A stretch of 34,891 nucleotides of DNA from a virus, in the IMG/VR virus record IMGVR_UViG_3300045988_059671, positions 1 through 34,891 of that record, one strand, 5' to 3'. Below, in pieces: positions 20,777 to 22,607 of the stretch. Position 1 is the first letter of the stretch. Each line of letters begins with the position of its first letter. The notes below the pieces were generated by a model. The model did no database searches. It was not told the origin of the DNA and saw only the letters and a list, made by a program, of their open reading frames with translations. The position numbers and the translations under genes were made by a program.

Positions 20777-21409
20777 TCAAATCATACTTACATCAACATA
20801 AATGTTGCCGTTTTTCATATATACCTTTTTCGGTATGTATGATTGCCCACGCTTCAATAGTCTTTCTTTTTGTGCCATGTCTTCGGACACGTTTTTATCT
20901 AAAAATGAAATGTCCTTTCCACGTGTGTTTTTGCTTGTTTTGATTTTCAGGACGACTGGTTTGCTTGATCCAGTGAAGCCGCCCCACTCTTCCGCTATTG
21001 CGCTATCTGTAGTGGTACTCATGTATCCTTTGTCTGTAATGATTTTGTTCAGCGGCGCATTTGCCATTCGCTTTGCTTCAGCCATTACCTTTTGTGCATA
21101 AGCACCTTTGCCAAGTGCGTTTTCACCGTCTTGGATATAGTTCTGCAAGTATTCATATTGTGATTGTGTCATTTTTCCAAATATGGCGCTTGCATCAACA
21201 CTTCTATATAGCGTATCTTCCTTTACTTTTTCGTTCGTGGCTTTGTCTAATCGTGATATTCTGCTTAGTTCTTCATCTGTGAGTGTTATTTCATTGTTCA
21301 AACCTCTTAGCTGATTGTTTACCCACATTCCATCACCGCTTCCGTACCACTCTAAAATATCAGTATCTTCATGTGTTTTTATTTTTATTTCTGCGCCACG
21401 TCCACCCAT
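20777..21409 (-). CDS. ADP-ribosyltransferase, C3/exoenzyme (R-S-E class) family, with MGGRGA leader (triad gene 3)
   Basis: 210 aa. W..VNNQLRG region, Arg motif LYR69SV, STS-type motif GYMS131TTTD, ARTT-type motif AQ180KE182RLLKRG. N-terminus MGGRGAEIKIK shared with the two upstream genes. Confidence 0.7.
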   Translation of the reverse strand: MGGRGAEIKIKTHEDTDILEWYGSGDGMWVNNQLRGLNNEITLTDEELSRISRLDKATNEKVKEDTLYRSVDASAIFGKMTQSQYEYLQNYIQDGENALGKGAYAQKVMAEAKRMANAPLNKIITDKGYMSTTTDSAIAEEWGGFTGSSKPVVLKIKTSKNTRGKDISFLDKNVSEDMAQKERLLKRGQSYIPKKVYMKNGNIYVDVSMI

Positions 21410-21421
21410 GCTATACCCTTT

Positions 21422-21928
21422 CTATAACTCGTTATAAAATGACTTTGAACGTAATGAATTTCTTTTCCATGTTTTCCCGTTTATAGTGAATTCCAATTTC
21501 TTATCTTTTAATGCTATTTGCATTGCTGTTAAGAGTTCTTTCTGCTCGTTCGCTTTTTTGTTTGTAGCCGATTGTTTTCTTACCTTTTCCATGTAATTTT
21601 TTACGGCTTCTCTCTTTTCTAATGCGATATTGCTTTTTTCTCTATTTTTTCCAATATCAAGTTTTGCACGGCCGGTTGTATATGGATTTGGCGCTTGCAC
21701 TTGCGCTTTTAACGCATCATTAGAAAGATTTGTTAGTTCTTTTATAGCGTTTTGCTTTTCTGTGTCAGAAATATTTAACTCTCTGATTTCTTTTATATTG
21801 TTTTCGTATTCTCTATTGATTGAGTCGCCCATTTCGTAAGCGCTACTTTGATTATTTGCTCGCTTTATCAATTCTTTATTAAGTCCACCAGCTGAACCTA
21901 TGGCTATCTTTGCACCTCTTCCGCCCAC
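21422..21928 (-). CDS. Hypothetical K/E-rich protein with MGGRGAKIAIG leader (triad gene 2; GTG start)
   Basis: 168 aa. Start codon GTG preceded by GGAAAGGTGA RBS. First 11 aa identical to gene 1 although 7 of 11 codons differ synonymously. Confidence 0.6.
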   Translation of the reverse strand: MGGRGAKIAIGSAGGLNKELIKRANNQSSAYEMGDSINREYENNIKEIRELNISDTEKQNAIKELTNLSNDALKAQVQAPNPYTTGRAKLDIGKNREKSNIALEKREAVKNYMEKVRKQSATNKKANEQKELLTAMQIALKDKKLEFTINGKTWKRNSLRSKSFYNEL

Positions 21929-21929
21929 A

Positions 21930-22607
21930 TTAGATCACCTTTCCTTTTTTGTTTCTTCTATTTAGTAATTCACTCTGTGGTACTGCGCCAGCGCCTAATG
22001 TTTTATCTTCTTTGAAAGTGAATTTATAACCATAGCGCTTTTGATTTGCTCTTAGCCAATTCATTGTTTGCTTTTGTGTTCTTTCATACGCCTGCGCGCT
22101 TGTTTCATTGCCGACAACAATAACAGTATTTGTCACTGGTGATTTTTGTAACCCCTTCACAAATTCCTTTGGTTTGAAGTTCTTTGTTTTTGCAAAAATC
22201 CAGTCGCCTTTTCTTTCTGATGCGCCAATACCAAGTGAGTCATTTTCTGCTGTTACAGCCAAGTCTGCACGTGAGAATGTGCCGCCGCTATCACCATTTG
22301 CTCTATCAGGGTGATTATGAAAAACAAACTTTCCAGCAACTTCTTCATTACGTATGCCGACAGAACCACTATCGCCACGGCGCATAACATGTGCAAATCC
22401 GTCACTATCGACAGCAATCATGTGTTCTATGTTATCGTTTATAACTTCGTTTCTAAAATTCATACGCATGTTGTCGATAGATTGCTTATTCCCTTTGTAG
22501 AGTCTATTCACACGCGCTGCAAGTTCTCTATCATCTGCGTTTCCATTTCTAGAACCTCCACCGCCTGCATTTGTTCCAATTGCTATTTTTGCGCCACGTC
22601 CACCCAT
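21930..22607 (-). CDS. Hypothetical protein with MGGRGAKIAIG leader (triad gene 1)
   Basis: 225 aa. RBS GGAGG. Gly-rich region after the leader. Body unrelated to genes 2 and 3. Confidence 0.6.
   Translation of the reverse strand: MGGRGAKIAIGTNAGGGGSRNGNADDRELAARVNRLYKGNKQSIDNMRMNFRNEVINDNIEHMIAVDSDGFAHVMRRGDSGSVGIRNEEVAGKFVFHNHPDRANGDSGGTFSRADLAVTAENDSLGIGASERKGDWIFAKTKNFKPKEFVKGLQKSPVTNTVIVVGNETSAQAYERTQKQTMNWLRANQKRYGYKFTFKEDKTLGAGAVPQSELLNRRNKKGKVI

Follow-up and report, generated by a model that had tools for sequence, protein, structure and literature searches.

A GGRG tag at the N-terminus of unrelated phage effector proteins is genetically coupled to DUF4417 and may serve as a handle for exchangeable cargo

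MuF polymorphic toxins (PMC3482391, PMC5576092) are one of the described systems that come closest to the locus considered here, which belongs to a viral stretch of 34,891 nt (34.9 kb; IMG/VR record IMGVR_UViG_3300045988_059671), called below the window, to the whole of which all coordinates refer. On its minus strand three tandem genes, g1 (21930-22607), g2 (21422-21928) and g3 (20777-21409), encode proteins that begin with the same short peptide, termed here the GGRG tag, and continue into unrelated bodies. Phage groups, operon and toxin repertoire (ADP-ribosyltransferases (ARTs), Tox-PL1, PBECR/BECR RNases, Ntox50) are alike in the two systems, both are polymorphic and exchange cassettes, and the window possesses a MuF2 gene (MuF2 as defined in PMC5576092) after that of the portal. 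MuF toxins, however, carry the MuF domain (PF04233/PF06152/MuF3/MuF4) in the toxin polypeptide and are encoded directly downstream of the portal gene, whereas g1-g3 have no MuF domain and lie upstream of terL; in relatives with another gene order, architecture B below, tagged genes do lie between portal and MuF. A small immunity open reading frame (ORF) follows MuF toxins; none follows g1-g3 and it is mostly absent in the Bacillota loci, whereas mycobacteriophages do have this feature, the gene after the toxin being annotated as an immunity protein in phage Jeeves. The constant partner of the tagged proteins is not MuF but DUF4417, and a search of the two cited papers showed no link of DUF4417 to toxins. 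We propose, with a probability of roughly 45%, that the tag belongs to a DUF4417-dependent handling of interchangeable effectors, most likely for their loading into the capsid and co-injection.

A short N-terminal peptide on unrelated late proteins, including an ADP-ribosyltransferase and anti-defence proteins, is also a property of IPI-III and Alt of phage T4, and a common N-terminal peptide on unrelated late proteins is found at our locus as well. The T4 capsid-targeting sequence (CTS) binds the scaffolding core and is removed by the prohead protease gp21. It has no sequence similarity to the GGRG tag, and no prohead protease was detected among the portal, MuF2, scaffold and major capsid genes of the window; moreover, the T4 peptide is cut off, whereas the GGRG tag apparently has to form the mature N-terminus and has a partner gene of its own, DUF4417, and packaging is a putative step here. 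The T4 sequence suffices to load foreign proteins, and its carriers are delivered with the DNA (PMC3012670, PMC9024508). In phage P1 a signal of about 30 N-terminal residues sends the large enzyme DarB into the capsid, for which other phage head proteins are needed (PMC9024508); this signal serves a single cargo and is not a common tag, shows no sequence relation to GGRG, and belongs to a myovirus of another host.

The products of g1, g2 and g3 (225, 168 and 210 residues; start codons ATG, GTG and ATG) open with MGGRGAKIAIG, MGGRGAKIAIG and MGGRGAEIKIK, fall into different BLAST clusters and are unrelated after about residue 12, and so ORF list, start positions and clusters agree with the original prediction of three tandem, co-oriented ORFs with a common leader and unrelated bodies. 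No ORF lies between the genes, the gaps after g1, g2 and g3 being 1 nt, 12 nt and 25 nt, of which the last, to terL (20777 to 20751), had been given correctly. The leaders of g1 and g2 differ in 7 of the 10 codons after the start, all synonymously, as had been noticed before, and additionally in ATG vs GTG, while g1 and g3 have 18 identical nucleotides in common. A nucleotide search of the region against phage records gave no match. One could regard the leader as a chance resemblance or as a recent local duplication in this phage only, for which just the 18 nucleotides identical between g1 and g3 would speak, and we consider this practically out of the question: the degenerate DNA pattern DTGGGNGGNMGNGGNGC (M/V-G-G-R-G-A) has 3 matches in the window, exactly at the starts of g1-g3, and 0 in 100 dinucleotide-preserving shuffles of it, and there are hundreds of independent occurrences elsewhere. 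Shuffle test and locus surveys thus reject this explanation.

A scan of viral contigs with the DNA pattern, followed by a six-frame rescan, revealed many tagged ORFs, often in tandem arrays of 2-6, and all loci fetched together contain 292 distinct tagged proteins in 69 body clusters, in line with the expectation that the leader would be found on many unrelated bodies. The carriers are phages and prophages of Bacillota, Negativicutes, Synergistota and Actinomycetota, including mycobacteriophage L5, and the GC content of the tag-bearing genomes from Bacillota to Actinomycetota ranges within 27-65%. Leader statistics were taken from 97 distinct leaders in loci selected only by DUF4417, regardless of leader, and give the consensus M-G-G-R-G-A-S-S-G, followed by a Gly/Ser-rich linker. 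From the 11-residue leader suggested originally there remains a conserved MGGRGASSG, about 6-9 residues, and the part KIAIG is lineage-specific. Gly, Ser, Ala and Thr make up a fraction of 0.45 of residues 6-25 of tagged proteins vs 0.25 in the remainder, and tag and linker are predicted to be disordered. Arg4 and Gly5 are invariant in 97/97 distinct leaders, though the search pattern permitted Lys at position 4, while Gly2 is encoded by 4 codons and Arg4 by all 6. Since the amino-acid consensus is kept with free codon choice, the leader is under selection at the peptide level, as had been claimed from g1 and g2 alone.

Closely related loci show that the tagged array is polymorphic and that the leader coincides with recombination junctions. 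Relatives with 86-95% identity to the window in the DUF4417 and terL flanks have differing sets of tagged genes: g2 is precisely absent in L121 and L122, in L123 it is kept and g1 and g3 are replaced, and L124 has just 61 nt in common with g1, comprising ribosome-binding site and leader, before it diverges. The breakpoints of exchange lie at gene or leader borders. Short motifs that demarcate a constant delivery part from exchangeable toxin modules, likewise at recombination breakpoints, are known from other polymorphic toxins, such as VENN in CdiA or the DPxGL site of Rhs; GGRG differs from them in that it usually stands at the very N-terminus of a separate protein and in that DUF4417 is mostly a separate polypeptide. 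It may be argued from such junctions that the leader has no recognition function at all and is a neutral product of gene fission or fusion, of translational coupling or of recombination, and the breakpoints at the leader with the 61 nt common to L124 and g1, the 18 identical nucleotides of g1 and g3 and the existence of both fused and split versions would all fit. We find it very improbable in view of a conserved amino-acid sequence that is written with all six Arg codons and four Gly codons, of its persistence from Bacillota to Actinomycetota over that whole range of GC content, of the invariance of Arg4 and Gly5 despite the permitted Lys, and of the Prp-type variants described below, which keep GGRG exactly at the predicted cleavage point.

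The same group of relatives contains a Cys-rich ORF of 40 residues (MATDNKHISPCHKCKYQNRCTKGRNCKD; L121 4831-4953, L122 8031-8153, L123 4196-4318, L124 7201-7323), located between two tagged genes in L121 and L122, where it takes the place of g2, and between the last tagged gene and terL in L123 and L124; the window does not have it. Locus L120 carries at 3562-3654 a truncated tagged ORF of 30 residues (MGGRGAKFYLSNLLGIPKNKKKAIESYKKK*) that overlaps the DUF4417 stop codon, together with a full-length g1 homologue with a Prp-type leader, and this truncated ORF is evidence of cassette decay.

According to our analysis, the almost constant neighbour of the tagged genes is a gene for a DUF4417 protein, which in the window (22915-23967, minus strand, 350 residues) combines an N-terminal ParB_N part (E 2.1e-5) with a full-length DUF4417 domain at residues 156-337 (PF14386, E 2.4e-79, above the gathering score). 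Its conserved polar residues are H193, D197/198, Y199, Q200, R203, D225, S227, N240, Y242 and R243. Loci selected by the leader show two gene orders, DUF4417-[tagged genes x1-5]-terS/terL-portal-MuF2 as in the window (architecture A) and terL-portal-[tagged genes]-DUF4417-[tagged gene]-MuF2 (architecture B), so DUF4417 and tagged genes move as a pair between two genomic positions. Where leader-selected loci extend at least 2.5 kb in each direction, DUF4417 is present in 20-21 of 22. In the opposite direction, 80 viral contigs and 80 bacterial genome contigs were selected by DUF4417, and a strictly defined tagged gene on the same strand was present in 69/80 and 63/80 of them, respectively; the rest mostly carry variants (MGGRGM, Prp-type with K or Y, GGSG, internal GGRG). 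The first tagged gene starts at most 30 nt from the DUF4417 stop codon, or overlaps it, in 102/128 loci, a spacing typical of translational coupling. Tag and DUF4417 are genetically coupled in both directions, and this partner gene, along with the Prp-type, pro-domain and DUF4417-fused variants discussed below, was not part of the original prediction and redefines the problem.

The DUF4417 family is large, with more than 3,000 clusters at 50% identity, and its loci were found in Streptococcus, Lachnospiraceae, Erysipelotrichaceae, Veillonella, Synergistaceae, Coriobacteriaceae and a metagenome-assembled genome of Spirochaetales; the genomes closest to the window are of Holdemania and other Erysipelotrichaceae (60-65% DUF4417 identity). 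The literature searched mentions it only as a label in annotations or as an uncharacterised fusion with ParB, and a ParB survey lists it only as a fusion, with no function assigned. The sole PADLOC match of the DUF4417 protein of the window covers just the ParB_N part, residues 4-139 of which correspond to the N-terminal 140 positions of the 'Type II methyltransferase' model (E 3e-39). Genes of this type are labelled 'DNA modification methylase' in many Javan streptococcal prophages and have no methylase domain, and this label is an annotation artefact of ParB_N-MTase fusions.

In Streptococcus phage A25 gp22 is DUF4417 and gp23 carries the tag. In actinobacteriophages the pair was found again: hundreds of cluster A mycobacteriophages, and Gordonia phages as well, have DUF4417 as gene 1 or 2, and in L5, D29, Jeeves and NaSiaTalie it is followed by a tagged gene. 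The cluster A gene following it encodes a protein with an MGGRG(S/G) start, a Gly-rich linker of 70-90 residues and a Tox-PL1/Gln_amidase or VIP2 ART end. In NaSiaTalie gp2 is DUF4417, gp3 starts with MGGRGGKGGPGPN, continues through a Gly-rich stretch of about 90 residues and ends in Tox-PL1/Gln_amidase (E 8e-14), and gp4 is the counterpart of a Jeeves gene with the annotation 'immunity protein'. In Jeeves gp2 starts with MGGRGSAGG; a tagged protein of Gordonia/Mycobacterium type carries a VIP2-type ART (E 4e-21). The module thus occurs in two phyla or more, and some of these hosts have no L27/Prp system. In L5 (L203, NC_001335) an ORF starting with MGGRGSKGGPGPG extends over nt 1081-1420 and shares its beginning with the end of gene 1, the DUF4417 gene. 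Its reading frame differs from that of the annotated gp2 (start 1305). In newer relatives the ORF is uninterrupted, so that gene 2 of L5 appears to be annotated in truncated form, either by a frameshift or because the old sequence has an error in the Gly-rich region. As to NaSiaTalie (L201), gp3 (1312-2313) is annotated as a 'VIP2-like toxin', a label probably transferred through the common MGGRG leader and Gly-rich region, as Pfam gives Gln_amidase/Tox-PL1 at the E value quoted above and no ART domain.

GGRG is not always preceded by a bare methionine. In the Prp-type variants (among others P0124, P0022, L128, L134, L143, L152, L159, and also L220, L221, L232, L249, L262, L283) the pre-sequence M(L/I)K(L)N(I/L)Q(L/F)F stands directly before it. 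Stand-alone homologues of g3 (n=120) start with MGGRG in 62/120 cases, have a Prp-like 'M.KLN(I/L)QLF' followed by GG(R/N)G in 7/120 and degenerate leaders such as MGRG or MGSRG in 19/120; both of the first two forms are also present in the g1 family. Methionine aminopeptidase removes Met before Gly, so the same GGRG end would result from a plain MGGRG start as from cleavage by Prp before GGRG, which would expose it in these variants. The pre-sequence resembles the L27 motif MLxx(D/N)LQ(F/L)F'A (PMC9405229), and in this subset of tagged proteins the N-terminal motif is like that of the Prp substrates (L27, and the scaffold gp46 and capsid protein gp47 of phage 80alpha), with the difference that P1' is Ala in the L27 motif and Gly in tagged proteins. 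The three genes of the window have no such pre-sequence: they start directly with MGGRG, and the frames upstream are closed or lack the motif. The N-terminus 'MPNNIQLF' of the major capsid protein of the window was considered as a Prp site and dropped, as in the alignment it coincides with the ordinary N-terminus of capsid homologues.

A further architecture was seen in loci without an N-terminal tag, where DUF4417 is followed by a protein of about 250 residues consisting of a 70-residue N-domain, GGRGA(S), a Gly-rich linker and a g1-like JAB domain. ORFs like orf89 of the window (22659-22928, minus strand) match these N-domains in hhalign (probability 95.7%, E 1e-8), and from this homology the series of orf89, hairpin and g1 in the window is a split version of one gene, cut exactly at GGRG. 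The hairpin (22631-22655, minus strand) is terminator-like, with a 10-bp stem, a 5-nt loop and the T-run ATTTTTAT; it was confirmed just upstream of g1, as predicted from the start, and lies only 24 nt from the g1 start codon, where other phages have one continuous gene. There is no space for a promoter downstream of it, and for this reason it may be an attenuator or an antitermination target. The residues before the internal GGRG are not conserved. Because Met-Gly, a Prp-type pre-sequence and the 70-residue pro-domain make three routes to one GGRG end, it seems that a mature GGRG N-terminus matters.

DUF4417 itself can be joined to the tag or to a toxin. P0214 is a single ORF of the form DUF4417-...KT-MGGRGSGGG-body, followed by a second tagged gene, while P0208 and P0216 have near-identical DUF4417 and diverge after EKGMG(S/A)A into Ntox37 (P0208) vs a barnase-type ribonuclease (P0216), with further C-termini of other domains in this subfamily; no relatives of P0208 were found in viral contigs. 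On this comparison DUF4417 behaves as a constant N-terminal domain of polymorphic toxins. Other fusions are ParB_N-DUF4417, as in the window, DUF4417-Sigma70_r2 and tandem DUF4417. Sigma-70 region 2 is fused C-terminally to DUF4417 in P0159, P0199 and P0238, and a sigma region-4-like regulator (24156-24581) is encoded just upstream of DUF4417 in the window; the Sigma70_r2 fusion may be either driven by adjacency or a hint of a transcription-related role or cargo. In the tandem proteins P0138 and P0150 the first copy lacks the DDYQF and PDFS motifs that the second possesses, a pattern typical, to judge from the motifs, of catalytic/pseudo-catalytic pairs.

These architectures allow a more enzymatic interpretation, in which GGRG is a processing or modification site and DUF4417 a peptidase, transferase or ligase that activates or releases toxins, whether or not packaging takes place as well; GGRG would then mark the point at which Met, the Prp pre-sequence, the pro-domain or DUF4417 is removed, or would provide an N-terminal glycine that is modified or ligated. 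This is the main rival of our proposal: GGRG is positioned exactly at the junction in four architectures (after M, LQLF, the pro-domain, and DUF4417 as GMGSA or MGGRG), DUF4417 has invariant His, Asp, Ser, Arg, Asn and Tyr, tandem duplicates with a degenerate first copy are frequent in catalytic domains, polymorphic toxins usually have a releasing peptidase ahead of the toxin module (PMC3482391), and a chromosomal DUF4417-toxin gene needs no capsid. Still, we regard it as somewhat unlikely, since most of the substrates begin at Met-Gly and require no dedicated protease, conservation is lacking before the internal GGRG, and DUF4417 bears no similarity to a known peptidase, transferase or ligase; an assignment of chemistry needs a structure.

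The bodies behind the tag, where they can be recognised, are those of effector or toxin enzymes, as had been expected: ARTs in two ADPrib_exo_Tox lineages, the Tox-PL1/Gln_amidase glutamine deamidase, a JAB family and the PBECR2 RNase, to which DUF6883 may be added as a further recognisable body. A PARP/ART-PolyVal-like family gives sub-threshold matches only, one family has an HExxH motif that is unconfirmed, and the PBECR2 RNase has also a sub-threshold match to MuF_C. The commonest tagged family, of about 130 residues, belongs to phrog_9479, has no assigned function and is not in the window. A few phrog_9479-like members ('YG.EY..GNIKFV') apparently lack MGGRG (L279 2516-2881, starting with MSDKGHAYGDGYK; L236 6107-6433; L251 6182-6466), so that either the tag is dispensable for that family or the start codons are non-canonical.

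ADP-ribosyltransferases are recognised by an R-S-E signature of Arg, S-T-S/T and [QE]-x-E. The protein g3 matches PF03496 ADPrib_exo_Tox at residues 12-198 (E 1.3e-13, 51.2 bits vs a gathering cut-off of 23.4) and has all three elements, R69 in LYRSVD, S131-T-T in YMSTTT and Q180-K-E182 in AQKERLL; it aligns also with the C-terminal 155 positions of the 513-position profile of phrog_595, a head-associated family. By profile and motifs it is an ADP-ribosyltransferase, as the first reading of the sequence had it. In g1 tag and linker occupy residues 1 to about 25, and the remainder displays the zinc-site motif E...HxH...S..D (E61, H97, H99, S112, D115), invariant in 11 sequences with identity down to 19%, and has the MPN fold of JAB/JAMM (MPN+) metallopeptidases. 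No Pfam family, JAB included, matches g1, and the matches to Prok-JAB (E 0.0095) and RadC (E 0.076) are limited to a single other family member in each case; as no JAB profile reaches the gathering score, we take g1 for a JAB/JAMM-type metallopeptidase of a divergent new family outside the curated ones. A search of PDB sequences with the g1 profile returned only matches to beta-propeller repeats, which are spurious. No match for g2 was found in Pfam, PHROG, NCBIfam, PADLOC or PDB sequences; it is a member of the second or third commonest tagged family and in close relatives constitutes a discrete cassette, present or absent. None of the tagged genes has a defence match in PADLOC.

The cargo of the tagged proteins comes from the pool that also serves MuF and polyvalent proteins, but with a different handle: ART-MuF and Tox-PL1-MuF fusions are documented (PMC9503650, PMC7302621, PMC3482391), and PBECR2 is found behind the tag in a stand-alone protein as well as fused to MuF2 in a phage that has tagged genes. 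The MuF2 of the window (16473-17606, minus strand; 377 residues, PF06152 Phage_min_cap2 at residues 3-361, E 5e-96) is short, without a C-terminal toxin extension, and in tag-bearing phages MuF2 is mostly short too (378-410 residues). The possibility that the tag marks a junction of MuF-toxin fusions was tried and discarded, there being no GGRG at the junctions of P0049, P0066 and the MuF2 fusions of L019, L101, L106 and L112; in P0049 and P0066, longer ART homologues, the MuF domain is not confirmed by Pfam and they are not relied on as MuF fusions. The MuF2 protein of L101 (6024-7856, minus strand) has a C-terminal part of about 180 residues with E...HNH...S..D in register with the JAB motif of g1 and may be a MuF2-JAB fusion, for which the weak hhalign result (E 0.009, probability 4.5%) is a hint only.

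A toxin repertoire of this kind might also belong to a polymorphic arsenal independent of the virion, acting in the producer cell (shut-off, abortive infection, exclusion) or on neighbours after lysis, with the tag mediating regulation or sequestration by DUF4417. The toxin-immunity organisation in actinobacteriophages (the Jeeves annotation), the polymorphic C-termini on DUF4417, the copy in a non-phage chromosome and the pervasive turnover of cassettes would be compatible with such a role. On balance we regard it as unlikely: immunity genes are usually not interspersed in the Bacillota loci, the window among them, the genes stand in the late head/packaging operon and not where morons or lysogeny genes are placed, neither an export signal nor a translocation domain is present, and the cargo repertoire is that of head-packaged MuF and polyvalent effectors (PMC9503650).

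Returning to the reading we favour, the virus would be a temperate siphovirus that infects a gut member of the Bacillota, and g1-g3 would be its exchangeable cassettes for effectors or toxins. Each would consist of an N-terminal tag (its mature form probably Gly-Gly-Arg-Gly-Ala), a Gly/Ser-rich linker that is disordered, and an enzymatic body that varies. The tag would be a handle for the DUF4417 protein encoded just upstream, which in most phages is translationally coupled to the first tagged gene and in some proteins is covalently fused to toxin domains; recognition of the tag by DUF4417 may depend on a free GGRG N-terminus. DUF4417 may then route the tagged proteins into the assembling capsid, from which they would enter the next host with the DNA. 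Tag and DUF4417 would thereby accomplish non-covalently, or after processing, what fusion of a toxin to MuF accomplishes covalently. The analogy with T4 capsid targeting, drawn in the original prediction, remains a reasonable one and is better founded now, because it can lean on selection for the peptide, 69 body clusters, the late operon, effector bodies and MuF-type cargo; packaging of the tagged proteins into virions and their ejection remain an inference.

Several points weigh against this proposal. The literature searched, including that on A25 and cluster A phages, gave no virion proteomics or ejection data for tagged proteins or DUF4417. A single-sequence AlphaFold2 model of DUF4417 reaches a pLDDT, the predicted local confidence score, of 36 and gives no usable fold, a PDB profile search with the DUF4417 protein matches only the ParB_N part, and its invariant polar residues resemble an enzyme active site more than a passive adaptor, while the fusions to ParB_N and Sigma70_r2 point to DNA or transcription. 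In cluster A mycobacteriophages the module is far from the portal gene. Some tag-bearing phages have classical MuF fusions, MuF2-Ntox50 (L112) and MuF2-PBECR2 (L106), and the tag is for this reason not simply a substitute for MuF fusion. P0250 (L289 8001-9338), DUF4417 with a variable C-terminus, lies between a MatE transporter and PNP/LuxS genes with no phage genes within 8 kb; since this is an ordinary chromosomal neighbourhood, DUF4417 fusions are not confined to prophages. In the window, finally, the terminator-like hairpin separates DUF4417 and orf89 from g1.

The remaining genes of the late region, which is on the minus strand and of siphovirus type, follow in the order regulator, ParB_N-DUF4417, orf89, hairpin, g1-g3, terminase, portal, MuF2, scaffold and major capsid, and this order bears out the placement of the cassette within a late operon for packaging and head genes. 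Next to the module on its upstream side, a gene (24156-24581, minus strand) encodes a late-regulator-like protein (sigma-70 region 4 / ArpU-RinA-like; phrog_36 transcriptional regulator, E 2.9e-9, with a weak Sigma70_r4 match) and precedes DUF4417 in close relatives too. The portal gene (17606-19012, minus strand) matches phrog_533 (E 7.5e-106). The terminase ORF (18991-20751, minus strand; 586 residues) carries Terminase_3 and Terminase_3C over residues 203-578, and its first ~190 residues form an N-terminal module (20182-20751, minus strand), of which residues 35-165, after a K-rich stretch, match phrog_2412. In relatives this module is a separate ORF of 110-165 residues directly upstream of terL, as it is also in many Streptococcus phages (MM1, 315.4, the IPP series) and one streptococcal satellite. 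It has no similarity to the TerS of A25; from its position it is probably a TerS-like module fused to TerL. The idea that the cassette replaces a small terminase in a 'TerS slot' has consequently to be abandoned, because that module sits within the terL ORF.

What was already known comprises MuF-toxin fusions, head-packaged ARTs and the suggestion of packaging for ARTs near head genes, as well as capsid-targeting signals of T4 and P1 and the processing of phage capsid proteins by Prp. The GGRG tag, its link to DUF4417 and a role of DUF4417 as a constant domain of polymorphic toxins were not found in the literature searched, nor did any phage paper turn up for the string 'MGGRG'. There is a real chance that we deal with a distinct system within phage effector delivery and polymorphic toxins. 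More tentatively, and with doubt prevailing, we may even suggest that DUF4417 and GGRG constitute a phyla-spanning phage protein-handling system, not recognised before, and a second, MuF-independent delivery route, where a tag of 5-6 residues would be exposed by removal of Met, by the host Prp or by removal of the pro-domain, and a dedicated carrier or enzyme would capture it, possibly by covalent ligation, and load an exchangeable set of toxins and enzymes against host defence into capsids for co-injection.

Should the tag serve for loading or handling, it would show how siphoviruses whose hosts are Gram-positive bacteria or mycobacteria make use of stand-alone toxins and anti-defence enzymes with no fusion to MuF, would give the DUF4417 family a role, and would account for genes missed or mislabelled in annotation through the common leader and Gly-rich region, as with NaSiaTalie gp3. 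It offers also a simple rule for finding effectors, namely ORFs that begin with MGGRG and adjoin DUF4417. The tag is short enough to be transplanted and could be used to load cargo proteins into phages that are engineered or meant for therapy, with streptococci, gut Clostridia and mycobacteria as hosts. The Prp-type variants connect a host ribosomal-protein protease with the maturation of phage effectors.

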